IMG/VR virus record: IMGVR_UViG_3300033066_001156 | Direction: 5' to 3' (one strand) | Length of the DNA stretch: 64,000 bases | Origin: a virus | Shown: piece after piece, positions 23,937-62,854 of the stretch | Layout: each line of letters begins with the position of its first letter | Numbering within the stretch: the stretch's first letter is position 1 | Notes under the pieces: generated by a model | Told to the model about the DNA's origin: nothing | The model's input: the letters and a program-made list of their open reading frames with translations, nothing else | Databases searched by the model: none | Program-made: the position numbers and the translations under genes

Positions 23937-24574
23937 CAACCTACGGAATCATCTATGTCGTCACCAACACGATCAACGGAAAACAGTACGTGGGGCAGAC
24001 GACTAAAAGTTTAGAGAAAAGATGGTCCGGTCACACTTCGGGATCTGTGGGTCATTGTAGGGCTTTGTGGGGCGCCATTCGCAAATATGGTAAGGAATCC
24101 TTCACCCTCACATCCGTGGACGTTGGTTCCAGCAAAATCGAATTGGACCATGCCGAAATGAGGTGGGTTGAAAGGCTCAATACCGTGGCACCCAATGGCT
24201 ACAATCTTACCATTGGTGGAGGGAGTGTGGGGAAACATTCCCTCGAAACTATTGAAAAACGAAGGCAAACCCTTATGGGACACCCAACTGCCCAAAAAAC
24301 GAGAGACAAAATCAGAGATGCTCAGAAGGGAAGATCCCTTTCTCCGGCTCACAAAGAAGCCCTAAGGGTGCCCAAGAAAAACAGAACGGAAGAGGGCATA
24401 GAGTCCCGGAAAGAAGCAATACGTAATGCATACGCTCGTATGACCCAAGAGAAAAAGTCGCAATTTGGACAGCATCGCGTTGGAACGAAACACAGTGAAG
24501 AAACGCTGGCAAAAATGAGAATGAAAGCTCAAGCTCGGGCTTCAAGGAGAAAAAACGATGTCCCTCTCGCATGA
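23933..24574 (+). CDS. GIY-YIG homing endonuclease with NUMOD3-like DNA-binding repeats (free-standing HEG)
   Basis: YGIIYVVTNTINGKQYVGQT (GIY-YIG), R...E and NGYNLTIGG core; C-terminal repeats GHPTAQKTRDKIRDAQKG / SPAHKEALRV / GTKHSEETLAKMRMKA. Confidence 0.8.
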   Translation: MTTYGIIYVVTNTINGKQYVGQTTKSLEKRWSGHTSGSVGHCRALWGAIRKYGKESFTLTSVDVGSSKIELDHAEMRWVERLNTVAPNGYNLTIGGGSVGKHSLETIEKRRQTLMGHPTAQKTRDKIRDAQKGRSLSPAHKEALRVPKKNRTEEGIESRKEAIRNAYARMTQEKKSQFGQHRVGTKHSEETLAKMRMKAQARASRRKNDVPLA

Positions 24575-25766
24575 CCGTCAGATCGCCTTGATGAAGTTCC
24601 TATCTCGTTTTGCCCGCAATCTTGGGGTGGGCAGGGAGACCTATGTGGTGGGTGGGGCCGTTCGCTCTTTCGCAATGGGTATGCCGATAAAGGATCTGGA
24701 CATTGTAATTGATTCAATCGCTCTGGGGGGAAAAGACTCCGATTGGTTTGCCAAGCAGCTTGCCTCTGCCATCCCTGCGAAAACCAATATCGTCACGAAC
24801 CAATACGGAGTGAGCATTTTATCCGTAAAAGGTACGTGGGTGTTAGATGGTATTGATCTAGATGGAGAAGTGATCGAGATCGCGAACGCTCGCAAAGAGA
24901 GTTACGGCACTGGCTCTAAGGGGTACAAGCCAACCGAAGTGGAGCCCTCGACTATCCAAGATGACATCTCGCGCCGGGATTTTTCGTTCAACACTCTTCT
25001 TTGGCGACTCCAGGATCTTGTTCACGGCCCTGAATACGCGGAAATTGTTGATCTTACGGGTGTGGGAAAAGCACATCTGGAGCAGCGATTATTGAACACT
25101 CCATTAGACCCAGACAAGACTTTTCAGGACGATGCTACGAGAATTCTCCGGGTGGTGAAGTTTTATCTTCGGTTCCATTTGAAAATCGCACCCGAAGTTG
25201 AATCTTCGATTCGCCGTAACGCTGGAGCACTTCGTAAGGTGCCTTGGGAAGCCGTAGCAAAGATCCTTGTGGGGGATATTCTGAATTCCCCACAAGCAAT
25301 GAAGGGGATGAGGGTCATGCGTGACCTTGGCATTCTCGATGTTCTGGTAGAGATGATCCGGGATACACCCCCTTTCGCCGCCTATTTGACTCGGCAATTA
25401 GCCTCCGGAAATCACTCCGTTGAGTTACTGCTAGAATTGGCGGATTTGGGTATTGCGGGTAGGGTTATATCTTTCTTGAGTGGTGCCCAAAGAGCTACTT
25501 TCAAGTCCCTCACGCAAGGAATGGGACACGAAGAGGCCCGTCAATTCCTTGAAGCTCTAAGTAACCCTAAATTGGAGAGCACCCCTCTTATTGAGGAGTT
25601 CAATCTTCAAGGTAGGGACCGTGGCATTATTGTTCCGTATGCCCGGGAAGAGATGCTTATTGATCCCTCTCTGGCATTAGATCCGGCGGGGCTTACGGAT
25701 GCCGTCCGCCGCAAACTTCAAGTTACTCGCCGGGTAGCAACTCGATTCATGTCGTTTTCGACTTGA
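24558..25766 (+). CDS. cca: tRNA nucleotidyltransferase (CCA-adding enzyme)/poly(A) polymerase-family protein
   Basis: Head-domain signature VVGGAVRSFAMGMPIKDLDIVI (GGxVRD..LG...D.D) and RRDFSFNTLLW (RRDFTxNA). Confidence 0.75.
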   Translation: MSLSHDRQIALMKFLSRFARNLGVGRETYVVGGAVRSFAMGMPIKDLDIVIDSIALGGKDSDWFAKQLASAIPAKTNIVTNQYGVSILSVKGTWVLDGIDLDGEVIEIANARKESYGTGSKGYKPTEVEPSTIQDDISRRDFSFNTLLWRLQDLVHGPEYAEIVDLTGVGKAHLEQRLLNTPLDPDKTFQDDATRILRVVKFYLRFHLKIAPEVESSIRRNAGALRKVPWEAVAKILVGDILNSPQAMKGMRVMRDLGILDVLVEMIRDTPPFAAYLTRQLASGNHSVELLLELADLGIAGRVISFLSGAQRATFKSLTQGMGHEEARQFLEALSNPKLESTPLIEEFNLQGRDRGIIVPYAREEMLIDPSLALDPAGLTDAVRRKLQVTRRVATRFMSFST

Positions 25767-25781
25767 TACCAACTATCGAGT

Positions 25782-28415
25782 GTGACTCTTCAACGAACGG
25801 CTCACATTTTTGAAGACCAACGGCCCCTAACCGGCCCATGGTTTCTTTGGGACAAGGGTCAAGGGAGATTGACCGGGTCTTTTTCTCCGGTTGCTGGTGC
25901 CTCTATTCTGGCCTTTGTGGACCCTTCTCGTGGGATAGTCGACCTGGATCCCGATTACCTGAAAACGCAAACCAGATACCCTGGTCTTTCTAACTTCAAT
26001 GGCAATAATCGACCTAAGGATTCCTGGACTATTCCTTACGGGTCGAGTAAACTCTCTGGCTCACCCCGTCTTGTCAGAAACATTTTCAAAACCCTCCTTA
26101 AATCCAACGCTCTAAGTGAGGATTGGAAAATCGAGAACTCCCCAGAGTATAGGGGTCAGAGTGTTGGGGACGTTCTCAGGGAGAACCGCCCAGATCCAGT
26201 GGATGAAATATCCTCTAAGTCTGTTGGATCCGTCATTCTTTATCACGGGACGAGTGCCAAACGTTGGGACACAATTAAGGTAAAAGGTCTAAAGCCTGGG
26301 TCCCCTACTGGATTCGGAGAGGACCCCTACATTGATCAGGTGAAAGGGTACTCCGACCGCAATATCTATTTGTCTTCATCTATCCCGGAAGCTGAAAAAT
26401 ATGCCACAAGAGCTGCAATCGTCGATCGGTCGAAAGCGGTAGTCCTGGCCGTAACTGTGAATGATTTCACTAGATTCCTTCTGGATGAAGACACCGCGGG
26501 TGTCCTAGAGTTGGATGGGTGGCGGTATCAATTCTCGGGTGATGCCTACCAAATACAGGAAGATGGGAGGGTCTCAATTAAGAAATGGCGTTTGGGCCCT
26601 AACGCTTCATACATTCAGGATTTGTTCCAACGGAACACTTTGCTCGGACTCCGGAAGGGCAAAACAATCGCCTATCGTGGGGCTATTCGACCTTCCAATC
26701 TTAAGGTAGTTGAAATCTATAAGCCGGTGAAGATTAAAAACGACCCGAAGTACCATCACACTACTGCTGATTCGGAGTCCTTTGCAGAAGGGATGAGAAA
26801 AGTGCGGGAAAATATGACATACCCGAAAAAAGCCTCCGTTACGGGGTTCCCGGAATTTGAGATTGGGAGAGTGAAGTTTATTCTGATGGTGGATAGGCCG
26901 GATCTTGTTCCATCTTACATGACTTACTTCACGCGAGCTTACAGAGTCATCAAGAATGGTGGGTTTGACAAGTTCTGGTATGGGTTGGTTTTCCTTAGCC
27001 CGGATTTGGAAACCTTATCCGAAGTGAAGATTCGCTCCTACGAGGCTTCCGGGTATAAACGCCATTTTGTCGAGCATCGTGCGGGTTACTATATATCTGA
27101 TCAGGACATTATGGCTTTTACTCAACCTCTCAGCTCATGGTTGGTTAATTCCATGGTCCACGAAATAGGCCATAGGTATTGGTTCAAGGGGATGGGGTCG
27201 GAACAACGTCTTCGGTTTCAACACCTCATCAAATTGCCAAAAGTTGTAAAGCCCCCGGTCATCATTCCGTTCAGTAAGGCTACGGATGTGATGGATAAGA
27301 TTGACGGATTTGCAAACGTAGTCAAGGCCGTGCTAAAGAAGTTTCTCTCCACCCGCATAACCTTCTATCCGAAAATCCTGAAAGCATTCGATACCCCACT
27401 GTTTGAAGCTGGTCGTATTTTCCATCGCAATCTTACGGATGTACTTCAAGAGCTTGGTGTTAGATATAACTCAAAATTAGATGCTTCAAGGGAGATGGTT
27501 TTTACTGCCGGGTCAGGATTTTTTCGGCGCATGTCCGAAGCCCCTGAGTTTCTCAATCGGCAGATGTCTACCTACATGGCTTCGGATACCGGAGATACTC
27601 TCACACAAGAGGCGTTAGCTGCTGAATTCAAGCGACAACAGAAAATCTGGGTGGCCGACACTTTGAGACAGCTTGATGATGTCGTGGATGTAGCCTACGG
27701 CTACGCGGGCTTTGCTGTTCGCACACATAATGAAGAGGAAGAGGCGGAGTACACCAATCGCCTGAACGCCATTCCTGGGGGGGAAATAGAGCCCGTATCG
27801 GACTATGGTCAAAGCAACATCGTGGAGGCTTTCGCCGAAGCTTTTGTCTATTACCTGATGGGTGATAGTATGAGCTACGATCAGAAGGAAAGTTTCAAGT
27901 CTGTTCTGACACGGACGGCTGACCTGAGCCCACCTTTAGGGGGTGGTCCTTGTCGTGTTGTGGATAGAATTCTCAAAACGGTTAGAGACCCAAGGTTAAG
28001 AAACACCATGGTGGAGGAGGTAGAGGGTGGTCACTCTCTACCCAATTTTGAGGCACGTAAAGTATATCAGTTTGAGACTGAAAAAGGTAGTGCCTTCAAA
28101 AGTTTCTCCATCACCCCACATGCTCAGTATCGGATGGATTTGAGGGGTATCACTGTCAAAGATGTTGCTCAGGCATTGGATTCATTTGCCGCCCGTCTGG
28201 TTTCCGTCAAAGGTACCCCGGCGTTTGAGTGGTACATGAAACAGGAAACCATAACCTGGATGGATCCAAGGACAAGACTTGAGGTGGCTTTTGGTATGGG
28301 GGACGGCAATCTCAATATTATCACCACATATTGGAAGGGGAAGAAAGATCCTCCTCCTACCAACTGTAGAGTGGAACGAGTTGCTGGAAGATATCTTACT
28401 GCTTCTTCTTGCTAG
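25782..28415 (+). CDS. Two-domain protein: N-terminal ART-fold domain (Tpt1/KptA-like HGT motif) plus C-terminal anthrax-lethal-factor/MtfA-like zinc metallopeptidase domain
   Basis: GTG start; SVILYHGTSAKRWDTIKVKGL...NIYLSSSIPEAEKYATRAA resembles KptA LYHGTASRFLDEIKKQGL...YVHLSADEATARK; HEIGH at about aa 470 and downstream EAFAEAFVYY as in LF HEFGH...EFFAEAF. Confidence 0.65.
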   Translation: MTLQRTAHIFEDQRPLTGPWFLWDKGQGRLTGSFSPVAGASILAFVDPSRGIVDLDPDYLKTQTRYPGLSNFNGNNRPKDSWTIPYGSSKLSGSPRLVRNIFKTLLKSNALSEDWKIENSPEYRGQSVGDVLRENRPDPVDEISSKSVGSVILYHGTSAKRWDTIKVKGLKPGSPTGFGEDPYIDQVKGYSDRNIYLSSSIPEAEKYATRAAIVDRSKAVVLAVTVNDFTRFLLDEDTAGVLELDGWRYQFSGDAYQIQEDGRVSIKKWRLGPNASYIQDLFQRNTLLGLRKGKTIAYRGAIRPSNLKVVEIYKPVKIKNDPKYHHTTADSESFAEGMRKVRENMTYPKKASVTGFPEFEIGRVKFILMVDRPDLVPSYMTYFTRAYRVIKNGGFDKFWYGLVFLSPDLETLSEVKIRSYEASGYKRHFVEHRAGYYISDQDIMAFTQPLSSWLVNSMVHEIGHRYWFKGMGSEQRLRFQHLIKLPKVVKPPVIIPFSKATDVMDKIDGFANVVKAVLKKFLSTRITFYPKILKAFDTPLFEAGRIFHRNLTDVLQELGVRYNSKLDASREMVFTAGSGFFRRMSEAPEFLNRQMSTYMASDTGDTLTQEALAAEFKRQQKIWVADTLRQLDDVVDVAYGYAGFAVRTHNEEEEAEYTNRLNAIPGGEIEPVSDYGQSNIVEAFAEAFVYYLMGDSMSYDQKESFKSVLTRTADLSPPLGGGPCRVVDRILKTVRDPRLRNTMVEEVEGGHSLPNFEARKVYQFETEKGSAFKSFSITPHAQYRMDLRGITVKDVAQALDSFAARLVSVKGTPAFEWYMKQETITWMDPRTRLEVAFGMGDGNLNIITTYWKGKKDPPPTNCRVERVAGRYLTASSC

Positions 28416-28870
28416 TCTTCCACTGGTTTCCGCCAGTAGCTATCAATCATCTCTTCCATTGTTTTCTTCCCCTCGGGATTCATGCTGTGCACTTTCGGTT
28501 TTTGAACCGGCCATATCCCCGTTTCCTTCATCCAGGATACTAAAGATCGTCCGTCCGGTACATGCGGACAATGGATGAGAGACCCATCAGTAGCTAGGCA
28601 GTTCTTACATGCCCCCATATCGTGATCGAGGGAAGCCTCCTCTATTTTGTACTTGGACATGATGGAAATGGCCTCCTCAACTGTTCTGGCCAGATGCCAT
28701 CCTACTGGACATTTCCTTACATCGTCCATGTAGAGCCGAACCTTGAATCCCTGGTTCAAGTTGATTGGTGGGGGGATGGTGCCTCTCACGAGATATGTCC
28801 GAACCTCTTCTCCCATTCCGCTATCACTTGCTCGGTTGGTCGGGGCAATTTGATGGTTTTCACAAACCAT
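28412..28870 (-). CDS. Receiver (CheY-like)-fold domain protein, paralogue 1 (possibly cyclic-phosphate-processing-receiver-like)
   Basis: KVRLYMDDVR...GWHLARTVEEAISIM...ASLDHDMG...HSMNPEGKKTM; collinear with ORF 40591..41037. Confidence 0.55.
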   Translation of the reverse strand: MVCENHQIAPTNRASDSGMGEEVRTYLVRGTIPPPINLNQGFKVRLYMDDVRKCPVGWHLARTVEEAISIMSKYKIEEASLDHDMGACKNCLATDGSLIHCPHVPDGRSLVSWMKETGIWPVQKPKVHSMNPEGKKTMEEMIDSYWRKPVED

Positions 28871-36641: not shown

Positions 36642-37616
36642 ATGAAAATTTCTCTTTCAGGCATCAAACCTACGGGATCCCCGCACCTGGGAAATCTCTA
36701 TGGGATGATTCTTCCCGCAATTGCTCTGCAGGAAACGCATCGGTCGCTCTATTTCTTAGCAGATTACCACGCTCTCACCACGGCTAGGAACCCGACTGAG
36801 GTTCAACGGCATAGTTTGGAAATAGCTGCTACTTTTCTTGCTTTTGGTTTAGACCCTGATGGTAATTCTATTCTCTTTCGCCAGAGTTCCGTCCCTGAGG
36901 TTCATGAGCTCTCTTGGATGCTTTCGTGTGTCACCGGAGTGGGGACAATGAATCGTTGCCACGCTGTAAAAGCAGCCGAAGCAACGGGTGCCAGTATGAA
37001 TCTTGGTACCTACACCTACCCGGCGTTGATGGCCGCCGACATTCTTCTTTATGGAGCCGATGTGGTTCCCGTGGGTAGGGATCAGCATCAACACGTTCAA
37101 GTGGCCCAGGAGATGGCAACTCATTTCAACGTGTTTTATGGGCCAACGTTGAAAGTCCCGGAGGTTTTGATCTCACCCACGGCTACCGTCATTGGGTCCG
37201 ATGGACAGAAGATGGCAAAATCGAGGGGGAATCATTTACCTATTTTTGCGAGCGATGGGGATATAGCTCGATATGTGCAAAAGATGAAAACGGATTCCAC
37301 TCCTTTGGAGTCTCCAAAAGACCCTGGAGAATGCCCCGTCGCTCAATTGTTTCGTGTTGTTGCCCCACCCTCCGAAGTTGCTGATTTGGAGCGTCGTTAT
37401 TGGGAAGGTGGCTACGGTTATGGCCATGCAAAATCTCGACTGCTCGAAGCCCTGATTGATTTCATTGGTCCCCGACGCTCTGAATATCGCCGGTTGATGG
37501 ACGATCCCGTCACAATTGAGATGTATCTCCAACGGGGAGCAATAGAAGCTAGATCAGAAGCGTCTAAAATCATCCCGAAAGTACGTCAGGCTGTTGGTCT
37601 TCCTCGTAATCCTTAA
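36642..37616 (+). CDS. trpS: Tryptophanyl-tRNA synthetase (class I aaRS)
   Basis: HIGH-type PTGSPHLGNLYG, GRDQHQHVQVAQEMA, KMSKS-type KMAKSRGN; start taken at MKISLSGIKPTG. Confidence 0.85.
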   Translation: MKISLSGIKPTGSPHLGNLYGMILPAIALQETHRSLYFLADYHALTTARNPTEVQRHSLEIAATFLAFGLDPDGNSILFRQSSVPEVHELSWMLSCVTGVGTMNRCHAVKAAEATGASMNLGTYTYPALMAADILLYGADVVPVGRDQHQHVQVAQEMATHFNVFYGPTLKVPEVLISPTATVIGSDGQKMAKSRGNHLPIFASDGDIARYVQKMKTDSTPLESPKDPGECPVAQLFRVVAPPSEVADLERRYWEGGYGYGHAKSRLLEALIDFIGPRRSEYRRLMDDPVTIEMYLQRGAIEARSEASKIIPKVRQAVGLPRNP

Positions 37617-40590: not shown

Positions 40591-41037
40591 ATGAATGATC
40601 TCCTCATCACAACGCTCGATCCGATCCTCCCCGGTAGCCCCGTGGTTTACATCCCTGAGCTGGGGCACTACATCAGGGCCGCCCTTCCTGTCCGGGTGTT
40701 CCTGGATGACCAGTGGGATCTTCCGGATCGGTACCCGGGGTCCGGGTGGACGTGTGTCCGTACTGTTCAGGAGGCTCAGGCTATCCTTCGCTTTTATCGT
40801 GGAAGGGTGACTCACCTTTCTCTCGACAGTGATCTGGGTGCCCCCGATGGGCTGGAGGGTCCCGATCTGACCGCTTGGCTTTCGGCCGAGTACTTCGTAG
40901 ATGGTAATGATTTCTGGCCTACCGGAGTCATTACCGTCCACAGCCGCAACAGTCAGGGTCGGGCGAAGATGGAGGGGGATATCAAAAACCCCCGGTGCAA
41001 CCCTCGGCCGTATACCTTCAAGCCCGCCCTCATCTAA
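40591..41037 (+). CDS. Receiver (CheY-like)-fold domain protein, paralogue 2
   Basis: VRVFLDDQWD...GWTCVRTVQEAQAIL...LSLDSDLG...VHSRNSQGRAKM; homologous to 28412..28870. Confidence 0.5.
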   Translation: MNDLLITTLDPILPGSPVVYIPELGHYIRAALPVRVFLDDQWDLPDRYPGSGWTCVRTVQEAQAILRFYRGRVTHLSLDSDLGAPDGLEGPDLTAWLSAEYFVDGNDFWPTGVITVHSRNSQGRAKMEGDIKNPRCNPRPYTFKPALI

Positions 41038-47849: not shown

Positions 47850-47874
47850 CCGGGTTGATGGTAGTTTGACCTAA

Positions 47875-51500: not shown

Positions 51501-54500
51501 AAATCTTGCTCCCGAAACGGCCCTATCTGAAGCAAGGGCACTCCTCCCTCTATTTGCTGGGAAACACGGTCCCGTTTCCAATGCCGATTTGGCTTTGTGG
51601 TTCTCTCCTCCAAATGACGCGAAACTCATTGCTTTGCTTTGCATGGCTAGGGAAGGGTACCTACATCCAGATTGGATTTCGTATCTGATTCGGGAATATC
51701 CTTCCTCCTATGACCTTGCCTGTATTCAAGCAATTCTTCCAACACCTAAAGTTCTAGACCTTCCGGCTCTCCGTTCTCTTTTTCAAGAGAACGGGCTGAG
51801 TTTCAGTCACGAGTCTTTTGGGGTTAACCTCACCGTCTACCTGCGAATGATGCAAGCGGGGGGTAAGGAGCCTAATCTTGTCTCAGCTCTTAGACCTGGG
51901 AATACGGATGAGTGGCAGGTAAAGACATTTACAGTTGTGATGTGTGAGATGATTGAGCAGGGGGGTCTGGATCCGGCTCTTCTAAATAAGCCACTGTTTG
52001 AGTTGGAGTCCTTGGCCTCTACAGAGACCGTTCAGAATGCCGTGAGGAAAATCAAGTCCACAATTGAAAAGTCCGCAAAAACTGCCCAATCCGATCGGCC
52101 ACATCCTCATGTGGAGGCCGCGGAGGCTTTTGCGGAAGCCGGGAGAGTTGCAACGAAAACTAGAAAGGCATTTCTGTCAACCTATGGTCTATTTTCCGTT
52201 CGGGATCCCAACTACGATCATTGTTCTACAGAAGTATCAATTACTTTTGCGGATAAAACTTTGGCTGCTGCGGCTGTACCGGGCGATCTTGGGACGCATG
52301 ATTTCTTTCAGGCCATGGCTGCTTATATCCGGCTTTGTGGTGAGGAAGGTAAAACACCTAATTTCCGGTATCTTCTCGCTAATTCCTCTCTCTCCTTAAG
52401 AGACAAGGTCAAAGGATTTTCGCGTATTCTATCGAAATCCGTTGATGAGAAGAAAATCCATGCAGATGCAGTTTTGCGTGTTCGAGAAGACATCCACAAC
52501 GCTAACCTCTTTCAACAAGAGATGCTTTGGCTTGAGGAAGACCTCCTTACCTCTTCGAAAACCAAAGCGGGCGCCTTTGGGCAAAGACGATCCAAGTTAG
52601 AGCAATCTCTTTTGGGTGGGGTTTCCTACATTTCCAAAGAAGGGTCTAAGGTTACTCGGTTGAGGGCCCTCCATACCCATACTGCGGTATCCATTCTTCG
52701 GAACCTATCCGAGGCGGGCCACTCGACTGCAAGTTCTATTCGAAAAGCCTTATGGCAAGAAGTTCTGAATGGTGCTGGGGCGGATGATATTTTTCGTGCC
52801 TTGCTTGCGTTAGTGAAAACAGGTTCTTTTACCCTGGATGACCTCAGAGATCCCTGGACCGGCAGTCTGGTTCGCGGTCTATCACCGAAATTGGAACAAC
52901 TCTTATGGTGTGAGTCGGATGGTGATTCCACAGAAGCTTATGTGGTTGCTGAGGGTATCCTAGACACCTACGTTGGGGATCGCAGAGTAAGAGTCTTCGA
53001 CCGTTTGGTAGATACACTCAAATTCACCTCCACGTTCCATTCCCCAAGCTATTTTCGTGATCTTCTCGTAGAGTTTGAGCGGGAGGGTCTTTTTCCTGGG
53101 TTGGTGGAGAAAATTCTGGATGCCATAGCTAGAGAGAAATATCTTTCTACGGAGGCCCTCCGTTCTTACGACTTTTTTACCGATTTTTCACACGAAAGGA
53201 GGGAGCACCTTAAGAAATACGTTGCTGAGTTAGCTACACGAGAGGATAAGATCAGATATTCCCCACGTAGACTGGCATCTCTTCGCCACTGGCTCAAAGG
53301 TAGCCATTTTTGGATTAAAAGAGATGGGGCCGCAGAATATGCCCTAGTTCCATCGGAGCTTTCGGATAAGCAAATAGACGCAATCCTAAAGTCGTTGCCG
53401 CTACTTGACGAAAAGTTCTTGCCTCCAAGCAATCACGACGGTTTTAAGAACTTTGTTCTTCAATTACATGAGTTGAATCTTCCCGTGGGACAGGTGCAAA
53501 ATCTTTTTGTCAATCTGTTTGCCGCAGGGGTTTGTTTCCCAAGTGATATCCCGACAGCAGTGTCTTTCACTGTAGACCAAGCTTTAAGCTCAATTGGTGG
53601 GTGGTTCACACCCTATCAAAACCTAAAAGATTTGGCTGTTGTACTGACCGACCCCTATCTTTCCTCAAACGGATTCGTGGCGACTCTAGCCTCTCATTTG
53701 AAAATGGTAGGTTCCGCTCCATCTTCCCTTGCTCACGTCATTCGTGTTGCGTTCAACACTCCTGATTCCGTTTCGGGTATGACCGCTGGAGAAAAGGCCA
53801 AATGTATTAAGACTCTGGTGAATCGGGGCGTGGATGCAAACTGGTACACCAACCAAACTCTTTTGGAAGCCGTTTCTATAGCCGAAACTCAGTCCCCAGA
53901 AATTAATGGTTGGGTGGAAGCCGACTCTTTCATGCGTGGGAAAAAAGATGACATGGTGCCTATGGCGGAATCACTCTCGGATCCACATAAAGAAAAGCAC
54001 GAAGCTAAAAATTATGGTGGGGAGAAAGCAAACAAAGATCTGACGGAAGCACTCACGAAGTCGGATTGGCTTTTGACCGACTCCGGTGTCTTTCATTTGG
54101 ATGGGATGTCCGAGGGTAAAGCTAAGGAAATTGCCGAGGCCCTTATTGATTCCACCAGTATGACATCTGCTGGTGAAGATGCCATACAAGCTTTGACCGA
54201 AGTTAGTGGTGGAAACCAAACGGTTGCTAAGAAGATCATATCGTCGCTGCTGGACTGGGCCGACTCACCATCGGAAAGGGTCACACAAAATGCTTTCCAG
54301 TCCACGACGATAGAGAAGCTTCCAAAACCAGGACCCAAAGAATGGGATCTATGTGGGGTTTTGGGACGATACAATCCGGAGATTCAGGGTCATGTTGCCG
54401 CTTATATACTCAAATGTGGGCGCGAAGGTAGGGCTCCTGATTTTCGTCGGCTTTTAACCTCTGGTACCGGAACTGCTATTTCTCACGGCTGGGTTCTTGT

Positions 54501-56070
54501 TTTGACGGAAAGAGCTCTTGAGCTTGGGTACCTGGATAGGGTTAAACTTCGGGAAGCTTCGGAGCAATTGAAGAATTCTCAGTCAATTCACCTTTTTTCA
54601 TTTGGCTCCGATCTTGAGAACTACCTAAATGAACTGGAGGGTAAGGAGACTTTGAAAGAGAGCCTCAACGTGGCTGAAGAACTAACAAGCCCTGGCATGG
54701 CCGCCCTTCAGATGATGTCTATGGGACCCTCAAAAGTATTACTTCGTCTTGCTGAAGAGGTAACATCTGAACGGAAAACCGAACAGTGGAGGGCTCAGGT
54801 AATAGATCATTTGATTTCAAGAGATGATTTCCAATCCTATCTGGAACTTTATGTTGCTCGTGCCCTAACCTATATGGTGGGGAAAAAGAATAACGAAACT
54901 CTTAAGCAAGAAATGGCTCAAGCTGCGGCAGAGTCGATTACTTTTAGCTTTGGTTGCACCCAAGCGGATTTGGGCTCTCCGGCACCAATTTCCCACATTC
55001 CGGATTCTGCCTTGCTGTACGAGGAAATGTACCGAAGGGTGCATCATGCGTATGAACGAAAGGTACAAAATAGAGCCGTTCTCCCACCTGGAGAGTCCTA
55101 CGCCAGGGTTATTGCTAGTGAGGAAAAGAGAATTTCCGAAGCTTTTGGTGTGGATGATGCCCTAAAACAGGTGGCAGCTATGAAAGAGGCCCTTAACCTC
55201 ACTCAGAAGAGGGTATGGGATAAGAAAGCTGCCATGGAACCTCAGGTTGCTACGAAAGTTGCCGTGCCCATGTTGGATCCAGTTAAAATTGCGGCGGGGA
55301 CTGCGAGTGTTGTCGGATCCATGGCAATCACTGATTCAACTGACGAAGTAAAAGGTACAAAGGAAACTCAGAGGATGAAATCAGATTCAAATGTGGCCGC
55401 GGCAAAGGTCGGCACAAAGGCTTCCCAGAAGCCACTGAAAGGAAAGGCAATGGAAGAGGAAGAAGAAGATCTGTTCGAGGATGACGTAGAAGAGGATAAA
55501 GGTCCCGATTTGGGTCAGATTCTCGTTAAGACACTCAAAGACGACGGGAAGACCATCGCTCTCAGAACGGGGGTTAAGCATACCCGGGAGCAGCTAACCG
55601 CGTTGGTGACAAACTTCATCAACAGCAAATCTATTCGTAGGTTTGAGGGTGAATCGGATGAGGCTTACACGGCACGGGCCGAAGCTCAACGAAGTGGCGT
55701 GTCAGCTTTCCTTCTCTCCGATGTTGGGCAGCAGCTTATCACCTATCTCCTTGGTCTTTCGTGGCCTGTGCTGGAAAGCAACATTGAGGATGGTAAGGTT
55801 AGGAAATACGGCGGGATGGTTGCAAGGGAGATCCGTGCGCAGAGTGGTTCTGACCTTCTCGATGGATTTCTGGAAGAGGTTGTCTTCCCCCTCCTAGCGG
55901 TGATTACCTCTGAAGCCAAAAACTTCGGGAAGATGGTTCTTGCTCCGGCAAAGCGGGTTCGCGTTTCAGGTCTCAATGAATCCCCTGCAGACGAGAAAGC
56001 TCGACTCATGGAGCGACTTGCGGAACTTGAGCGGGACGCTAACGTTGTGCCCATGGCTAAAAGCCGGTAG
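48589..56070 (+). CDS. Giant hypothetical protein (2493 aa), predominantly alpha-helical with internal repeats; possible virion/injected protein
   Basis: Uninterrupted 7.5-kb ORF; repeated blocks (SRSGPEIAQDLM x2; L.FC.GLR.E...+.L x2; CGEEGKTPNFRYLL / CGREGRAPDFRRLL); acidic C-terminal stretch EEEEEDLFEDDVEED. Confidence 0.8.
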   Translation: MTVSKDKLIDILTQGYYIFFRNSSGLARCLLPYKHTPETAEALVTRFMAGEKPGKEGIFSWLPLFLSTESGPLHPQSSSLLSGWTSRLGAVGGLYAIPAVSHDPSNEKFSGIGLGSPVLDLLASIQAAYGTLSGSTLETIFEGFVSQTDLQPALVARLFVSIGLASNGDVCSMARGWGGQKSLPGKEILAALEDPSYSIAIRAEGYLAERRLRKLTQPRWVMSPLGLRFCSGLREERAKEILVLLGLIGDSNLITKDRIQSLLSVTVSSIDELSILYALISETPVEDRAKAFGDYKISPDTFIGLRQPIGQDLDYARDISKSDTLVHLTASIHATLTEGVIGARHILEHSDFESKKRFEDVSEALYYLASRSGPEIAQDLMTTFEDYLLSNLQPMSRSGLEIAQDLMGSNNPKVIAVGRKIMDKLQIFDWDKFASDLTSPRWLGLTSGELNFCVGLRREDVLRALEFLKTQIEGGKIPSLIARKCCDILGSSEVISYLHEEGMVESGWQFFGNVSVRMTGRDTPIPRDQADKVSFMLPVPIEEDRAVAVGDTPTIKNFSASVAALIRRCRASSTIPDLRPLMRRGNMFSQRDAETCILDTIVSLHRKNKLTRDVLERIASSLQDMPRVHGFLDNYLRSSAKQSLSTKTKEVLTSTKWLLKFKAHGPGYQEIVWGGRLSPFQADQIFIRLNLSREKIPSSEIRAFIDAEIDNLPRSVLHSILFSLSYLGKLEDTTFLHVPSKKMVDAGISTIFQRYGGFLPLPERGDITLAQEIESKYGHKWAGMDVDFTASFLSLVTRGGIILRGEAYSPPYFGLEIASWFVRAAMQIEHGVESCLLALYEICKRTPKFSETLTFWSDQIATQKDEFNTTLGLVFKEIASGSFNPDTDVTQAQKDLWLSLQSDSEIASRGNQKGDTLGTSENRKEPVSIFEGEEKVDEKIAISPTWVNLSQLEAVLSVPVTALMREGFATANLAPETALSEARALLPLFAGKHGPVSNADLALWFSPPNDAKLIALLCMAREGYLHPDWISYLIREYPSSYDLACIQAILPTPKVLDLPALRSLFQENGLSFSHESFGVNLTVYLRMMQAGGKEPNLVSALRPGNTDEWQVKTFTVVMCEMIEQGGLDPALLNKPLFELESLASTETVQNAVRKIKSTIEKSAKTAQSDRPHPHVEAAEAFAEAGRVATKTRKAFLSTYGLFSVRDPNYDHCSTEVSITFADKTLAAAAVPGDLGTHDFFQAMAAYIRLCGEEGKTPNFRYLLANSSLSLRDKVKGFSRILSKSVDEKKIHADAVLRVREDIHNANLFQQEMLWLEEDLLTSSKTKAGAFGQRRSKLEQSLLGGVSYISKEGSKVTRLRALHTHTAVSILRNLSEAGHSTASSIRKALWQEVLNGAGADDIFRALLALVKTGSFTLDDLRDPWTGSLVRGLSPKLEQLLWCESDGDSTEAYVVAEGILDTYVGDRRVRVFDRLVDTLKFTSTFHSPSYFRDLLVEFEREGLFPGLVEKILDAIAREKYLSTEALRSYDFFTDFSHERREHLKKYVAELATREDKIRYSPRRLASLRHWLKGSHFWIKRDGAAEYALVPSELSDKQIDAILKSLPLLDEKFLPPSNHDGFKNFVLQLHELNLPVGQVQNLFVNLFAAGVCFPSDIPTAVSFTVDQALSSIGGWFTPYQNLKDLAVVLTDPYLSSNGFVATLASHLKMVGSAPSSLAHVIRVAFNTPDSVSGMTAGEKAKCIKTLVNRGVDANWYTNQTLLEAVSIAETQSPEINGWVEADSFMRGKKDDMVPMAESLSDPHKEKHEAKNYGGEKANKDLTEALTKSDWLLTDSGVFHLDGMSEGKAKEIAEALIDSTSMTSAGEDAIQALTEVSGGNQTVAKKIISSLLDWADSPSERVTQNAFQSTTIEKLPKPGPKEWDLCGVLGRYNPEIQGHVAAYILKCGREGRAPDFRRLLTSGTGTAISHGWVLVLTERALELGYLDRVKLREASEQLKNSQSIHLFSFGSDLENYLNELEGKETLKESLNVAEELTSPGMAALQMMSMGPSKVLLRLAEEVTSERKTEQWRAQVIDHLISRDDFQSYLELYVARALTYMVGKKNNETLKQEMAQAAAESITFSFGCTQADLGSPAPISHIPDSALLYEEMYRRVHHAYERKVQNRAVLPPGESYARVIASEEKRISEAFGVDDALKQVAAMKEALNLTQKRVWDKKAAMEPQVATKVAVPMLDPVKIAAGTASVVGSMAITDSTDEVKGTKETQRMKSDSNVAAAKVGTKASQKPLKGKAMEEEEEDLFEDDVEEDKGPDLGQILVKTLKDDGKTIALRTGVKHTREQLTALVTNFINSKSIRRFEGESDEAYTARAEAQRSGVSAFLLSDVGQQLITYLLGLSWPVLESNIEDGKVRKYGGMVAREIRAQSGSDLLDGFLEEVVFPLLAVITSEAKNFGKMVLAPAKRVRVSGLNESPADEKARLMERLAELERDANVVPMAKSR
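49694..49809 (+). repeat. Near-perfect 38-bp direct repeat (2 copies, 78-bp period) inside the giant ORF
   Basis: gcgtcccgaagtggcccggagatcgctcaagatttgatg at 49694-49731 versus atgtcccgaagtggcctggagatcgctcaagatttgatg at 49772-49809; in-frame duplication of SRSG(P/L)EIAQDLM. Confidence 0.8.
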
Positions 56071-56351: not shown

Positions 56352-56861
56352 ATGCAAGACAAACTCATTGAGTCCCTGGAGAGGGTTCTTGTTGACAGAG
56401 ACAGATCCATTCAAGAGCTTAGGGGGGTTGTTGAATCTTTACAAGCCCTGCTGGAAAAATCAAAATCTGCTTGGTGCCTGCCCAGGATTGGACAGGACAA
56501 CCCGAATCTACCACTTCCTCGATTGGAGATGGAGTGGGTAGACGAGACTCAAAAACCATCACCCCCCTGGACCTGTTATATGGTTGAATACAGATTGGTT
56601 CAGGGTTGTTTATCTGGTAAAGTTCTCTTTTCCCCTTTGGGGGTAACCAGAGTCAAGGGTGGGGTGCACGAATGTCCGTGGGCCTTAGACAATGGCAGAG
56701 TGGATTTGCCTTTTGGGGACGGCCCGAGCGCTTGTTTTGACTCTGGCCATTTGAATCTCCCACTCTATCTTATCACCCCATCTAGCCCACCAATAGAAGT
56801 AAATGCTGAGGACTATGGGCCCTATCAGTATCGTAAGGGTCAACAGCAACGCAGAGGCTAA
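56352..56861 (+). CDS. Hypothetical protein
   Basis: 169-aa ORF. Confidence 0.4.
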   Translation: MQDKLIESLERVLVDRDRSIQELRGVVESLQALLEKSKSAWCLPRIGQDNPNLPLPRLEMEWVDETQKPSPPWTCYMVEYRLVQGCLSGKVLFSPLGVTRVKGGVHECPWALDNGRVDLPFGDGPSACFDSGHLNLPLYLITPSSPPIEVNAEDYGPYQYRKGQQQRRG

Positions 56862-56862
56862 A

Positions 56863-57738
56863 ATGGGATATAGGCACATTCCTACCACAAGTCACCGGGA
56901 TTCTCTTCCGATTTTTCATTTTGATAAAGTCTATTGTCTGGAGAAAATTGATGGGACTTCGGCGCACGTCTCGTGGTCAAATGGTTCCTTGACCTTCTCT
57001 CCCGGCGGGGCTTCCGCGGAAGCCCTTGAGAAGCTGTTTGATAAGGACAAGCTCACCGAATACTTCACTTCTTTGGGCCACCCCAAGGTCACCATTTATG
57101 GTGAAGCTTATGGTGGCAAGGTTCAGAAGATGGGATCTCGCTATGGGTCCGCACTCCGATTTGTTGCTTTTGACGTTAAAGTTGGGGAAGAGTGGCTAAA
57201 TGTCTCGGATGCTGCTATTTTCGTGGAGAAAGCGGGTCTTGAGTTTGTACCCTACAAAATCATCCCTATGACGCGAGAAGCCATTGATGCAGAGAGGGAT
57301 GCACCATCCGTTCAGGCTGAGAGGAATGGGATGGGGACCAATCAGGATAGGGAGGGTGTTGTCCTTCGCCCTCTCCTGGAGTTCTATTACCAGGGGGATG
57401 TGATCCGGGTCAAACACCGCCGTCCGGAGAATCGTGAGACATTTTCAGTTCAGCCTTTAGCCACAGAGGCTCAGGAAGTTCTCACGGGCGCTAAGGCTAT
57501 TGCCCAAGAATGGGTCACACCCGCTAGGTTGAATCACGTTATGGATCATCTGATCGCTACCCTGGGTCGTGAATTGGAGATGAGGGATACCCCCCAAGTC
57601 CTTGCCGCTATGCAAGAAGACGTGTACCGGGAAGCGGCCGGTGTCGTAATTGAATCTAAAGAAGCAACCCACGAGATCCGTACGAAAACACGTCTGCTAT
57701 TCCACACACATCTTCAATCAAAGGTACCATGCATCTAG
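56863..57738 (+). CDS. ATP-dependent RNA ligase (Rnl2-like nucleotidyltransferase)
   Basis: Motif I EKIDGTSAH (KxDG), TIYGEAYGGKVQ, EGVVLRPL (motif IV-like), VIRVKHRR (motif V-like K-x-K); start MGYRH with upstream GAGG. Confidence 0.65.
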   Translation: MGYRHIPTTSHRDSLPIFHFDKVYCLEKIDGTSAHVSWSNGSLTFSPGGASAEALEKLFDKDKLTEYFTSLGHPKVTIYGEAYGGKVQKMGSRYGSALRFVAFDVKVGEEWLNVSDAAIFVEKAGLEFVPYKIIPMTREAIDAERDAPSVQAERNGMGTNQDREGVVLRPLLEFYYQGDVIRVKHRRPENRETFSVQPLATEAQEVLTGAKAIAQEWVTPARLNHVMDHLIATLGRELEMRDTPQVLAAMQEDVYREAAGVVIESKEATHEIRTKTRLLFHTHLQSKVPCI

Positions 57739-58160
57739 CTACAAACTCTGGAAAAAAGAATCGGCTTCCTGGTGAAGCCCAGGAGGCTCGGAAAATTCGT
57801 CAGGCCAGAGCCGCTCGCCATAATCGCATTCTTGAAGCCGTCAAGAGGGTCGAGCAAGAAGGGGACCAATGGTTGCTTTTGGATGGTGTGAACATCAAAA
57901 TCACTTTGGATCCAAACGTTTACATCGGTAGCTATTGCTATATGGCAATTGTTCGAACCAAGAAATTCGGTCTTCAGATTGCGCAAGTGACGACTAAAGA
58001 CAGAGGGTATGCAACTTTGGTTCGCATGAAGAGGCACCGCATGATTGGCATTCGCGATGGGTTTGAGGTGTGCTACATCCGGCAAGTCGATACGGCCGGA
58101 GAAGACAGATGGGATCAGTGGTATGCCCTAGCAAAGAGAGATGTGGCTCAATCAGACTAG
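57729..58160 (+). CDS. Hypothetical protein
   Basis: 143-aa basic ORF. Confidence 0.4.
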   Translation: MHLATNSGKKNRLPGEAQEARKIRQARAARHNRILEAVKRVEQEGDQWLLLDGVNIKITLDPNVYIGSYCYMAIVRTKKFGLQIAQVTTKDRGYATLVRMKRHRMIGIRDGFEVCYIRQVDTAGEDRWDQWYALAKRDVAQSD

Positions 58161-60528: not shown

Positions 60529-61296
60529 GTGGTTGTGAATACACAGAGTTCCGATTTGGACAGAACCCATCTAGCTAACCCCCTACTTCATTTGGGGCTG
60601 GCTGTAACCATTGCCAAAGAGCAGTGGGAGAAGTATCCCAATAGATACTGTACATACGAAGATTATGTACAGACCGCGTATGTGGGGCTTCTGGACGCCT
60701 GCAAGCGATATGACTCTTCGATTGGTACTTTCTCCTCTTTTGCCTATCCAACCATTCTTGGCCATATTAGGAGAATGAGAGCCTCACGACGTATTGTCCG
60801 GTTTGGTGGGGAGAGGGTGAACCTTGCAATAGCCCGAGGGCTGAAAAGTGGAGGGATGACCTACACTCCTGATTTCGCCGCGGAAAGAATGAGTAATATC
60901 CCCCATGCCCCTGAACTCAAATCCGAAGAAGAAGTGCACAGGGCTGTTGGTTTCGTTCGAGGCAAAGACATCTCTATAGATGATATTCACACTTCTGGCA
61001 ATCTCCTCCCCGAAGACATCCTGCCTGACGACACTTATCCCGAGAACATCCCCTACGATTCTATGGTAGGGAGAAATTGGACTCGTGTTCTGGAGATATA
61101 TCGGGAGAAAGTCGAACAGGAGGGTGGTCGATTGAAGCGGCTGGTCCTTGGGAAGCGCCTATTCGTTCTGGACCCAGAAGATCAATCAACCCTTGCCGAC
61201 ATTGGTCGGGAGGTTGGTGTTTCTCGTGAGCGAGTTCGTCAGGTAGAGGCCGTCATGCTACGTGAGATTCGTCAGCTCGTAAAGGAACTAAGATGA
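60529..61296 (+). CDS. RNA polymerase sigma factor (sigma-70 family)
   Basis: Region 2 YVQTAYVGLLDACKRYDSSIGTFSSFAYPTILGHIRR; region 4 HTH TLADIGREVGVSRERVRQVEAVMLREIR. Confidence 0.75.
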   Translation: MVVNTQSSDLDRTHLANPLLHLGLAVTIAKEQWEKYPNRYCTYEDYVQTAYVGLLDACKRYDSSIGTFSSFAYPTILGHIRRMRASRRIVRFGGERVNLAIARGLKSGGMTYTPDFAAERMSNIPHAPELKSEEEVHRAVGFVRGKDISIDDIHTSGNLLPEDILPDDTYPENIPYDSMVGRNWTRVLEIYREKVEQEGGRLKRLVLGKRLFVLDPEDQSTLADIGREVGVSRERVRQVEAVMLREIRQLVKELR

Positions 61297-61961
61297 AAAT
61301 CCGACCCAACCTGAAACCCCCCACCATCATGTCCAACCCACCTGACCTAGATGCTCCGCCGGAGTTCTATGACCCGGCACACACAAACCCCCCGGGGGTT
61401 CAAGATGGGCCTTTCATCAAACCCACGGAACCAGCCCGACCAAAGAGCTACATTCTCTCCAACCCTCCACCATTGGTGGAAACTTACGAGGCCCCAACAC
61501 CAAACAAAGAGATCGAGCGAAAATTCCTTCTCAAAGAGGGGGTTGTCTTTGCGGACAGGGTCGAACGGTCCTACAAGATCATTCAGGGATACCTGTCAAT
61601 GGGTCCCGTTGTGAGGGTTCGTGTCCAGGATGGTATTGGATACCTCACCATCAAGGGCAGTGGTCTCCTCACTCGCGCGGAGTACGAGTATCGCATCCCG
61701 ACCAACGAAGCCGAGGAACTCCTGGAGTTGTGTGTGGGATCCAGGATCGTCAAGACCCGACACATCGTTCTTGCAAAAGAGGGTAACTTGACAACTCGGT
61801 GGGAGGTGGACGAATTCCATAGCCCCATCAAACTCTGGATGGCCGAGGTTGAGCTACCTTCTGAGGATGCCCCCTTCGTCAAGCCTTCCTGGGTAGGGGA
61901 AGAGGTGACTCACGACATCAGGTACACCAACGCTGCGATATCCACGGTGCCCGCAAAATGA
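61293..61961 (+). CDS. CYTH-domain (triphosphate tunnel metalloenzyme) protein with Pro-rich N-terminal extension
   Basis: EIERKFLLKEG (ExExK signature) followed by beta-strand-rich region with conserved R/E/K positions (YEYRIP, RWEVDEF, EVEL). Confidence 0.6.
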   Translation: MKIRPNLKPPTIMSNPPDLDAPPEFYDPAHTNPPGVQDGPFIKPTEPARPKSYILSNPPPLVETYEAPTPNKEIERKFLLKEGVVFADRVERSYKIIQGYLSMGPVVRVRVQDGIGYLTIKGSGLLTRAEYEYRIPTNEAEELLELCVGSRIVKTRHIVLAKEGNLTTRWEVDEFHSPIKLWMAEVELPSEDAPFVKPSWVGEEVTHDIRYTNAAISTVPAK

Positions 61962-62422
61962 TCCCTATTGAGTATGTTGTGGGCGACGCTACGGATCCCC
62001 AGGGGGACGGAGTCAAGCTCATCATCCACATCGTCAACAATCGCGGTGGGTGGGGACGCGGGTTTGTGAATGCGATCTCCAAACGGTGGGATGGACCCGA
62101 GCGTGTCTACCGTGCGGACCACAAGCATGGACACCTCAACCTGGGTACCCTCACCGAGGTTCTGGTCGCCTACAACACTTTTGTCATCAACATGGTGGCC
62201 CAAGACGGATACTCCACACCTGGGAGCCCTGCCATCCGATACGATGCATTGGCCGATTGCCTGGAGAGGGTTGGGGAGGTCGCTGTGGGGCTGAAAGCTT
62301 CGGTTCATGCCCCCCGTATTGGCACGGGATTAGCTGGTGGTAAGTGGGAAATAATAGAACCTATCTTGATCCATCAACTGTCGGAGAAAAATGTAAAAGT
62401 GACCATCTATGATCTTCCTTAG
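61958..62422 (+). CDS. Macro-domain protein (ADP-ribose binding/hydrolase fold)
   Basis: VVGDATDPQGDGVKLIIHIVNNRGGWGRGFVNAI (GD.T...DAIVNAAN..L..GGGV..AI pattern) and IGTGLAGGKWE. Confidence 0.6.
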   Translation: MIPIEYVVGDATDPQGDGVKLIIHIVNNRGGWGRGFVNAISKRWDGPERVYRADHKHGHLNLGTLTEVLVAYNTFVINMVAQDGYSTPGSPAIRYDALADCLERVGEVAVGLKASVHAPRIGTGLAGGKWEIIEPILIHQLSEKNVKVTIYDLP

Positions 62423-62437
62423 CGCCGTAACATAGTC

Positions 62438-62854
62438 ATGGCAAAAACACTCAAGGTTGAATTGGAGAAGGAACTTTCTATCCTCCGCCAGCGGGTCACC
62501 GAAGATGAGGGTGAGCTTCCACTCCCCCGGTTGGAGGTTGAATTCACCCACCTAAATGCCAATACCATGGAGTCGGTTGTTCGGATTGTCACTGGCCACA
62601 TTCGAGGGGATATCTTCTCCAGCGTAGTGCTTCACCGTACAGCATATGGCACCCCTACCTCTCCTATTTCTGAGGGCATCTTTGTTCCCAGCCACGCACC
62701 ACATTTTTTTAGTTGCGACGTAGCTTTTCTTTCGGCTCATTTGAATCTCCCTGTGTTCGTCCAGGGAGTGAAGGGTACTCGGATTCGATGGGAGCAAACT
62801 GCTTCTCACCCACACCAAATCTCCTTGGGGGCGAAAGCTCGGAGGGGTCTTTGA
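62438..62854 (+). CDS. Hypothetical protein
   Basis: 138-aa ORF. Confidence 0.35.
   Translation: MAKTLKVELEKELSILRQRVTEDEGELPLPRLEVEFTHLNANTMESVVRIVTGHIRGDIFSSVVLHRTAYGTPTSPISEGIFVPSHAPHFFSCDVAFLSAHLNLPVFVQGVKGTRIRWEQTASHPHQISLGAKARRGL

Follow-up and report, generated by a model that had tools for sequence, protein, structure and literature searches.

A scattered set of RNA and tRNA enzymes in a huge phage, with an Rnl2-family RNA ligase and an ADP-ribosyltransferase-fold protein linked to a CCA-type enzyme

The 64,000-nucleotide stretch of IMG/VR virus record IMGVR_UViG_3300033066_001156 (hereafter the window, meaning this whole stretch) encodes an RNA ligase at 56863-57738 and, away from it, a CCA-type enzyme, a tRNA with anticodon CAU, a tryptophanyl-tRNA synthetase (TrpRS), two receiver-like proteins and a protein with an ADP-ribosyltransferase (ART) fold, and it raises the question of whether these genes together form a toolkit for the upkeep of tRNAs under attack. 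An earlier note, made from the letters of the window, had read them as a phage counter-measure to host anticodon nucleases or tRNA depletion, combined with translational self-sufficiency. Each feature it named was found where it had been placed or within a few bases of it, with significant scores for all apart from the Tpt1-like domain. The reading that we favour, at a probability of roughly 0.55, is that of a genuine set of RNA and tRNA enzymes serving tRNA maintenance under attack in a huge phage. We infer the substrates of the enzymes and the cooperation between their gene groups, and the toolkit is best regarded as a set of functions that share a genome, on a theme known from jumbo phages, and not as a demonstrated operon or pathway.

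The mechanical open reading frame (ORF) of the ligase spans 56803-57738, and a start of the form MGY.H, found in 34/34 aligned homologues, placed the initiator ATG at 56863, one base past the stop of the upstream gene. The product scored 45.4 bits with Pfam PF09414 RNA_ligase (cut-off 27), matched phrog_548 RNA ligase at 1e-18, and belongs to a family of 3488 database clusters (E ≤ 1e-3) that makes up a separate subfamily, found mainly on large viral contigs. The nucleotidyltransferase motifs were recognised as EKIDGTS (motif I, containing K28), YGEAYG (III), FVAFDV (IIIa), EGVVLRP (IV) and VKHRR (V); family-wide, motif I takes the form EK(I/V)(H/D)GTS and motif V the form K-H-(K/R), and residues K28, E81, E164 and K184 were invariant in the sequences aligned (35/35). 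In an AlphaFold (AF2) model of the ligase (pLDDT 87), four helices (residues 200-286) come after the nucleotidyltransferase domain. When this model was compared with the PDB by Foldseek, full-length T4 Rnl2 ranked first (E 3e-11, ~335 aligned columns), with Naegleria Rnl5, archaeal Rnl3, REL1 and T4 Rnl1 at lower ranks, mostly through the catalytic domain only. T4 Rnl2 was also the sole PDB match of the family profile (E 1.2e-6), which ran through motifs IV and V into the C-domain (T4 residues 203-308); motifs I, III and IIIa aligned to T4 Rnl2 in a sub-threshold stretch only. The Rnl2-like character proposed earlier was thus borne out, and 56863-57738 is an Rnl2-family RNA ligase, its family being given by fold and profile with the C-domain included. 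At 21.1 bits the protein fell under the cut-off of the curated equivalog TIGR02307 (197.15), and it is therefore not an orthologue of T4 Rnl2 and represents a divergent subfamily. Purifying selection acts on the gene: pN/pS was 0.07 in comparison with relatives at 96% identity and 0.15 with those at 83%.

Other identities for this protein were considered and discarded. A DNA ligase or capping enzyme was ruled out by DNA-ligase fold matches that were far weaker, by the lack of an OB domain and by the Rnl2-type C-domain, and classes Rnl1, Rnl3 and Rnl5 were ruled out by matches that cover the nucleotidyltransferase domain only or score worse. The receiver-like and HGT domains named by the earlier note also received fold or family assignments, as described below.

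The gene at 24558-25766, previously described as encoding a CCA-adding enzyme, encodes a class II CCA-type nucleotidyltransferase. Its product scored 53 bits with PF01743 (cut-off 23) and 22.1 bits with PF12627, matched phrog_2244 tRNA nucleotidyltransferase at 2e-29, and had the CCA-adding enzymes 6ibp/1miv as best PDB relatives (E 7e-14 to 4e-13). The translation contains motifs A (GGAVRS..DLD), B (RRDFSFN) and D (DDATRILR) and comprises a head and an RNA-binding body. All NCBIfam equivalog cut-offs were missed, the CCA, A-adding and PcnB models each giving weak matches, so that the enzyme may add CCA, CC, A or poly(A). A GIY-YIG homing endonuclease gene (23921-24574; PHROG 314, E 5e-36) overlaps the start of this gene by 17 nt.

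Physical linkage of the CCA-type enzyme, an 877-aa modular protein carrying the ART domain and a protein of the cREC ('cyclic-phosphate processing receiver') family was demonstrated. The 877-aa gene starts 15 nt past the TGA stop of the CCA-type gene and in the same frame, the TGA and five codons lying between them (25764-25784), and its 3' end overlaps by 4 nt that of a convergent cREC gene, cREC1. The same order, CCA-type enzyme, then ART plus C-terminal domain, then convergent cREC, was repeated in relative L009, at 65-72% identity. In P0125 a separate CCA-type gene abuts that of a protein composed of InPase, ART and the C-terminal domain, and in P0124 and P0126 the CCA-type enzyme, ART and C-terminal domain form one polypeptide with a clean junction and with peptidase-like segments before it; L096 is arranged as P0126, with cREC 5.5 kb downstream. 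A distant metagenomic member of the ART family, P0167 (1569 aa), joins ART to HAD_SAK_1 (53.7 bits, cut-off 25.6), the 'Swiss army knife' RNA-repair phosphatase family, and to the core of a eukaryotic-type topoisomerase IB. Because of the fusions with the CCA-type enzyme and with HAD_SAK_1, it can be argued that the ART domain works on or near RNA ends.

The earlier note had described a Tpt1/KptA-like HGT domain in this protein. The HGT segment (LYHGTS) was upheld, as was a nearness to Tpt1 in the NAD lobe of an ART fold, and membership of the Tpt1 family was not. An AlphaFold model of the domain reached a pLDDT of 91.8, and its structural alignment with Tpt1 chains covered 83-92 of their 178-180 residues. 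A profile of the ART family searched against the PDB retrieved Tpt1 chains only, at E 0.003-0.5 and over ~40 residues around LYHGT...GL.P, and the window domain scored 15.9-18 bits with PF01885 Tpt1 (cut-off 26), over profile positions 80-123 of 177 only. The domain thus has the ADP-ribosyltransferase fold, with an NAD+ lobe nearest Tpt1 by sequence and structure. A bona fide Tpt1 was rejected on the sub-threshold PF01885 score and on the lack of both the RNA lobe and the catalytic tetrad; despite this, the functional idea behind the original assignment was revived by the ART fusions. The family numbers 177 representative clusters in 1.84 billion proteins, and a tblastn search of 50,697 deposited phage genomes did not find it. 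Its invariant residues are H, G, T and S of LYHGTS and a further S, Y, R and D, with H116, S152, Y157, R171 and D196 among them, and sub-threshold matches were obtained to Tpt1 for 25/40 members, to PARP for 24/40 and to ART-PolyVal for 9/40. Among predicted viral structures, the best matches of the model were uncharacterised jumbo-phage proteins, e.g. of Bacillus phage G.

Beyond the ART domain, no family could be assigned to the middle region of the 877-aa protein (residues 351-720), in which an HEIGH motif lies. The C-terminal module carries an invariant PHAQYRMDLRG motif, of which H-A-Q-Y-R-M-D-L-R is kept in all family members aligned; it scored 18.2 bits with PF14076 (DUF4258, cut-off 25), and 18/19 family members matched that model sub-threshold, with a best E of 4.5e-5. 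Recent work groups DUF4258 with the BECR-fold, colicin-like RNase toxins. With such protease-like and RNase-toxin-like parts in the same protein, the ART domain could equally well serve in offence or as an effector. A stand-alone homologue of this module (L098 5426-6540, on a 267-kb contig) overlaps the stop of a SAM-lyase/DUF3293 gene, which suggests an anti-defence context.

The two receiver-like proteins, which had been called paralogous and likened to domains of RNA-repair neighbourhoods, both passed PF20274 cREC_REC (cut-off 27 bits) and are paralogous, with 29% identity and a mutual E of 6e-12. Both contain the receiver-type acidic DD and D.D motifs, which in cREC1 read YMDD and LDHD. 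A Cys/His-rich insert, CKNC...HCPH, is present in cREC1 and not in cREC2, and may be a zinc-binding loop. No HisKA or HATPase families were among the Pfam matches of the window, so that no histidine-kinase partner for cREC was found there. cREC matched 53 deposited phage records, including Streptomyces phages of ~127-133 kb; Streptomyces phages of that size range also carry ligase matches, cREC and ligase in one record not being shown. The family was defined from jumbo-phage RNA-repair and NAD+ contexts (PMC7824862).

The tRNA called tRNA-Met by the earlier note was detected by both ARAGORN and Rfam, was the only RNA matched in an Rfam scan of the window, and is conserved in close relatives L010-L012. 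The 3' end of its gene (47846-47852) reads A73-C-C followed by G, not CCA, and at least the terminal A must therefore be added after transcription. The acceptor stem begins with a U1-G72 pair and the base of the anticodon stem has no more than two G-C pairs, on which grounds an initiator identity was rejected; the tRNA is of elongator type, for Met or, with lysidine, Ile2. The TrpRS passed the equivalog TIGR00233 (232.8 bits, cut-off 176.75), scored 160 bits with PF00579 and has both class I signatures, PHLGN and KMAKS, intact. One tRNA and one aminoacyl-tRNA synthetase in 64 kb make the proposed translational self-sufficiency a modest one.

A huge (jumbo-type) phage is the source of the window, which has a G+C content of ~49-51% and is densely coding and whose first half contains replication genes (family A DNA polymerase, DnaB-type helicase, primase zinc finger and SNF2 helicase) together with a thymidine kinase and a Dam-type methylase. 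Two proteins with intein splicing domains and LAGLIDADG endonucleases were also noted within positions 1-24000. A megablast search of 5 kb of the window against the 50,697 phage genomes gave no match. The best tblastn match of the ligase was an uncultured phage of 485 kb (LR745208.1, 47% identity), which within ±20 kb has only the ligase and a single small ORF in common with the window. The metagenomic and viral contigs that bear ligase homologues reach 511 kb. The word 'scattered' used by the earlier note was apt: the RNA- and tRNA-directed genes fall into three separate groups over ~38 kb and on both strands (Table 1).

Table 1. Positions of the RNA- and tRNA-directed genes, their groups and their neighbours in the window
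Feature	Position	Strand	Remarks
Group A	24.5-28.9 kb		CCA-type enzyme, modular ART protein 15 nt on, then convergent cREC
Class II tRNA nucleotidyltransferase (CCA-adding type)	24558..25766	+	402 aa; without HD domain
Modular protein	25782..28415	+	877 aa; ART domain, HEIGH middle, DUF4258-like C-terminal domain
ART-fold domain	25899..26801	+	aa ~40-340; LYHGTS; NAD lobe nearest Tpt1/KptA
DUF4258-like module	27942..28412	+	aa 721-877; PHAQYRMDLRG
cREC protein 1 (cREC1)	28412..28870	-	152 aa; PF20274 83.8 bits
Group B	36.6-42.6 kb		TrpRS, second cREC ~3 kb downstream, HAD 5'-nucleotidase
Tryptophanyl-tRNA synthetase (TrpRS)	36642..37616	+	324 aa
cREC protein 2 (cREC2)	40591..41037	+	148 aa; PF20274 57.3 bits; abuts upstream 222-aa ORFan
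Group C	47.8 kb to past window end		tRNA(CAU), giant ORF, Rnl2-family ligase, sigma factor, CYTH, macrodomain, HNH-fused second ligase
tRNA, CAU anticodon	47776..47851	+	ARAGORN; Rfam 47776-47849, 62.5 bits
ORFan	56352..56861	+	169 aa; 1-nt gap to ligase; kept in close relatives
Rnl2-family RNA ligase	56863..57738	+	291 aa
ORFan	57729..58160	+	143 aa; 10-nt overlap with ligase stop; 72% identical in L003
Sigma-70-like factor	60529-61296		window second half
CYTH (triphosphate tunnel metalloenzyme) protein	61293..61961	+	222 aa; PF01928 34.6 bits
Macrodomain protein	61958..62422	+	154 aa; overlaps CYTH stop
Second RNA ligase	L001 15688-16761 (~65475-66548 in window numbering)		357 aa; HNH E 4e-4 (N-terminal), PF09414 E 4e-24

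Downstream of the ligase, after the sigma-70-like gene, the CYTH and macrodomain genes form an overlapping pair. The CYTH protein resembled the triphosphatase NeuTTM (2fbl/3typ, E 2e-17) in the PDB. The macrodomain matched Pfam Macro weakly (17.7 bits), and in a phmmer search of the PDB it retrieved 2fg1 and 2afc (E 4e-42) and 5e3b (6e-39) over residues 3-153. In one Logan assembly the gene caller passed over the macrodomain ORF in favour of an antisense ORF of 97 aa. Logan contigs such as SRR32380195_34942 add only 3 kb to the window. A Logan contig (L001) that contains an identical ligase reaches 3 kb past the end of the window and there encodes a second RNA ligase, fused to HNH, ~8 kb downstream of the first; it has neither detectable similarity to the first nor an Rnl2-type C-domain, and is kept in close relatives L010 and L011. 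The HNH-fused architecture is already on record for jumbo phages (PMC7824862).

Upstream, between the tRNA and the ligase, lies a giant ORF (48589-56070, 2493 aa) without a Pfam match. Among close relatives it comes to 1508 aa in L010 and to 2462 aa in L011, and in L003 it is split into a larger ORF and one of 1053 aa. The 169-aa ORFan directly upstream of the ligase and a 138-aa protein (62438-62854) encoded directly downstream of the macrodomain are paralogues (27% identity, E 4e-10) without a family match.

To explain the set, we propose that host or rival nucleases would damage tRNAs during infection, and that the Rnl2-type ligase would reseal 3'-OH/5'-phosphate breaks in base-paired RNA. 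The cREC proteins may open cyclic phosphate ends, on RNA or on ADP-ribose cyclic phosphate, the ART domain may, like KptA, spend NAD+ at RNA ends that bear phosphate, and the macrodomain could clear the ADP-ribose products. The CCA-type enzyme would restore 3' ends, among them the one of the phage tRNA whose gene lacks the terminal A, and TrpRS and tRNA(CAU) would add to the translation capacity of the host. The same gene categories have been described in jumbo and huge phages (PMC7824862, PMC9503650, PMC7162821).

A number of observations weigh against this reading, the first of which is the apparent lack of enzymes that heal RNA ends. In a Pfam scan of the ~72 window ORFs (9 in one scan, 63 in further ones at E ≤ 0.01) no PNK, RtcB, RtcA or 2H family was matched. 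The only Walker-A match among these ORFs was the thymidine kinase, and Pfam and PHROG scans of the ORFans beside the toolkit genes returned nothing. On these grounds a hidden polynucleotide kinase in the window was rejected, in agreement with the earlier note, which had recognised none. Since no 5'-kinase was seen, the genes observed offer no way to ligate 5'-OH breaks, the kind that metal-independent anticodon nucleases leave. A kinase may be encoded in another part of the genome; if not, the ligase may deal with 5'-phosphate breaks, e.g. those of metal-dependent nucleases, or may have another role. The proposal of a single counter-measure against anticodon nucleases stood in part: its components are present, and no 5'-kinase was detected among them. 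Among the three groups, only the genes of Group A are demonstrably linked.

To the same side of the balance belong features of the ligase and of its surroundings. In motif V the first lysine is invariant, and the second, Lys across most of the family, is replaced by Arg in the window ligase and the sequences nearest to it. The flanks of the gene are translationally coupled ORFans restricted to the clade of this ligase, and in a survey of 80 IMG/VR loci of the ligase family no homologues of p169, p143 or p354 were found. In that survey, within 10 kb, a tRNA lay near the ligase homologue in 23/80 loci and at least three tRNAs in 12/80; cREC (at 1.3-3.7 kb) and a CCA-type enzyme were each near it in 3/80. 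On the supporting side, besides the loci with cREC nearby, the ligase homologue lies 0.2-7 kb from arrays of 18-23 tRNAs, at 3-7 kb in some cases, in a number of huge-phage contigs that measure as much as 395 kb (L005 17195-20365, L006 14321-20206, L016, L019, L021, L030, L049 and L051). A general link between ligase and tRNA arrays was rejected, the 12/80 loci pointing to a lineage-specific association and to no rule. In two contigs of 320-340 kb, from distant relatives, the ligase is flanked by an ATP-dependent DNA ligase and by DUF2201/AAA_5 genes and not by end-healing enzymes.

The remaining contrary points concern the ART, macrodomain and cREC proteins. No counterpart of the winged-helix RNA lobe of Tpt1 was found in the ART-Tpt1 alignments. 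The catalytic tetrad of Tpt1 is Arg-His-Arg-Arg; in the ART family no R-H dyad was found, the residue before the (I/V)YL strand being variable and the position of the fourth Arg not conserved. The fusions all occur within one syntenic phage lineage, their architectures resemble 'polyvalent' polyproteins, which are able to join unrelated activities (P0167 is an example), and distant stand-alone ART members (L007) had no RNA-repair neighbours. The macrodomain is of the ALC1/SCO6735 class and not of the Appr1p-phosphatase class. As for cREC, its activity is only predicted and 'experimentally uncharacterized' (PMC9503650).

Much of this could be accommodated if the genes were real but unconnected accessories of a huge phage, with no integrated toolkit, an explanation that we nonetheless hold to be unlikely. 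The ligase, like T4 Rnl2, would then have a role apart from anticodon-nuclease defence, e.g. the sealing of nicked RNA-DNA hybrids or of nicked, structured phage RNAs, the CCA-type enzyme would mature the phage tRNA only, TrpRS and the tRNA would tune codon or charging capacity, and cREC would act on nucleotide signals. Such independence would fit the spread of three groups over both strands, the clade-specific ORFans beside the ligase and the DNA ligase and DUF2201/AAA_5 neighbours in distant relatives, the minority of the 80 loci with tRNA, cREC or CCA genes nearby, and the absence of a kinase; it is at odds with the conserved CCA/ART/cREC linkage and fusions, with a pair each of RNA ligases and cREC proteins plus a macrodomain within ~42 kb (the window plus the adjoining L001 sequence), and with the published linkages of cREC to RNA ligase (PMC7824862).

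A further proposal goes beyond tRNA maintenance in general and is, in our judgement, doubtful: the ART domain would found an undescribed family of NAD+-dependent RNA-end enzymes, like KptA in function without being Tpt1, and would form with the CCA-type enzyme, the BECR-type RNase-like domain and cREC a unit that would 'cut, clean and rebuild' tRNA 3' ends and be delivered or expressed as a self-processing polyprotein. If the ART domain does act on RNA ends as part of a unit with the CCA-type enzyme, this would amount to a new RNA-repair or remodelling pathway and a new biochemical use of ADP-ribosyltransferases.

On balance it is improbable that the 877-aa protein acts as a 'polyvalent' effector, in offence or counter-defence, and not as a repair enzyme, with ART modifying host proteins or nucleic acids, the DUF4258-like domain cutting host RNA, the HExxH region processing the polyprotein, and cREC and the macrodomain serving an NAD+/ADP-ribose conflict by degrading immune signals (cyclic ADP-ribose derivatives) or reversing ADP-ribosylation. 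The shuffling of modules in relatives (HExxH, a borderline AAT of Ntn-hydrolase type, InPase, and topoisomerase IB in P0167) speaks for such an effector, InPase being what we take to be a polyvalent-protein Pfam family, as do the weak ART-PolyVal and PARP matches of ART-family members, the grouping of DUF4258 with BECR RNase toxins, the occurrence of the C-terminal domain in stand-alone homologues surrounded by small, early-type ORFs, one of these homologues being beside a SAM lyase, and a macrodomain of the protein-de-ADP-ribosylating SCO6735/ALC1 class. Against it, the CCA-type enzyme is fused or adjacent to ART in every window-clade member examined, and we know of no polyvalent effector in which a tRNA nucleotidyltransferase is a module; moreover, P0167 contains the HAD_SAK_1 fusion, the solved relatives nearest the NAD lobe are Tpt1 enzymes only, and the gene lies among genes of nucleotide metabolism and replication, with no head-morphogenesis or MuF genes nearby.

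Returning to tRNA maintenance under attack, the gene list itself is ordinary: RNA ligases, cREC, CCA enzymes, tRNAs and aminoacyl-tRNA synthetases are known in jumbo and huge phages and are read there as counter-measures to tRNA-directed defence. What is new here is the ART adjacent or fused to a CCA-type enzyme, the HAD-phosphatase fusion in its family, the macrodomain and CYTH genes downstream of the ligase, and the second ligase past the window. The ART family is now tied to the CCA-type enzyme by fusion and adjacency, to cREC by adjacency and, in a distant member, to an RNA-repair HAD phosphatase by fusion. The link between CCA and ART is mentioned neither in PMC7824862 or PMC9503650 nor in what a full-text search returned, a coverage that does not extend to Burroughs and Aravind 2016 (NAR 44:8525). 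Should the ART domain act on RNA ends, it would offer a testable handle on NAD+-dependent repair of tRNA ends and a first functional context for cREC. A set that contains a ligase and no recognisable kinase or 2H, HD or Pnkp healing enzyme also sharpens the question of what phage Rnl2-type ligases do.

Comparison with characterised systems places these features more precisely. With T4 Rnl2 (PDB 2hvq/2hvr) the ligase shares the five nucleotidyltransferase motifs, a homologous all-helical C-domain and the lack of an OB domain; it differs in an identity of ~15%, in length (291 vs 334 aa) and in motif V, where T4 Rnl2 has K225 and K227 and the window clade has Arg in place of the second lysine. 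In T4, the pair that defeats anticodon nucleases is Rnl1 and Pnkp, not Rnl2, and to our knowledge the natural role of T4 Rnl2 is not known. The CCA enzyme of E. coli has an HD domain and is said, in work by Yakunin and colleagues of 2004, to possess 2',3'-cyclic phosphodiesterase and phosphatase activities; the likeness would lie in a CCA-adding head paired with the cleaning of phosphorylated tRNA 3' ends. The phage enzyme differs in having no HD domain, and its candidate cleaners, cREC and ART, are separate or fused, have unrelated folds and would use NAD+. Compared with Tpt1/KptA, the window ART has a different N-terminal subdomain of ~100 aa and is embedded in a multi-domain protein. Phage polyvalent proteins resemble the 877-aa protein in being large and in shuffling ART, metallopeptidase-like HExxH and other enzyme modules, InPase being one of these in relative P0125; by contrast, the window protein passes no Pfam polyvalent family, has no MuF, portal or head genes next to it, and has a tRNA nucleotidyltransferase and a DUF4258-like domain as its constant partners.

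The closest parallel is the jumbo-phage network of RNA repair and NAD+/ADP-ribose metabolism described by Iyer, Aravind and colleagues (PMC7824862, PMC9503650), with which the window shares ATP-dependent RNA ligases, including HNH-fused Rnl2-type ones, as well as cREC, CCA enzyme, ART, macrodomain and tRNAs. Unlike that network, the window lacks PNK, 2H, HAD 'Swiss army knife', RlaP and a bona fide KptA, and its ART is of another family, one absent from the 50,697 deposited phage genomes and coupled to a CCA-type enzyme. Relative to the known jumbo-phage kind, the variant features of the window are therefore the absence of classical healing enzymes, the presence of two cREC proteins, a DUF4258-like module and a non-Tpt1 ART coupled to a CCA-type enzyme.

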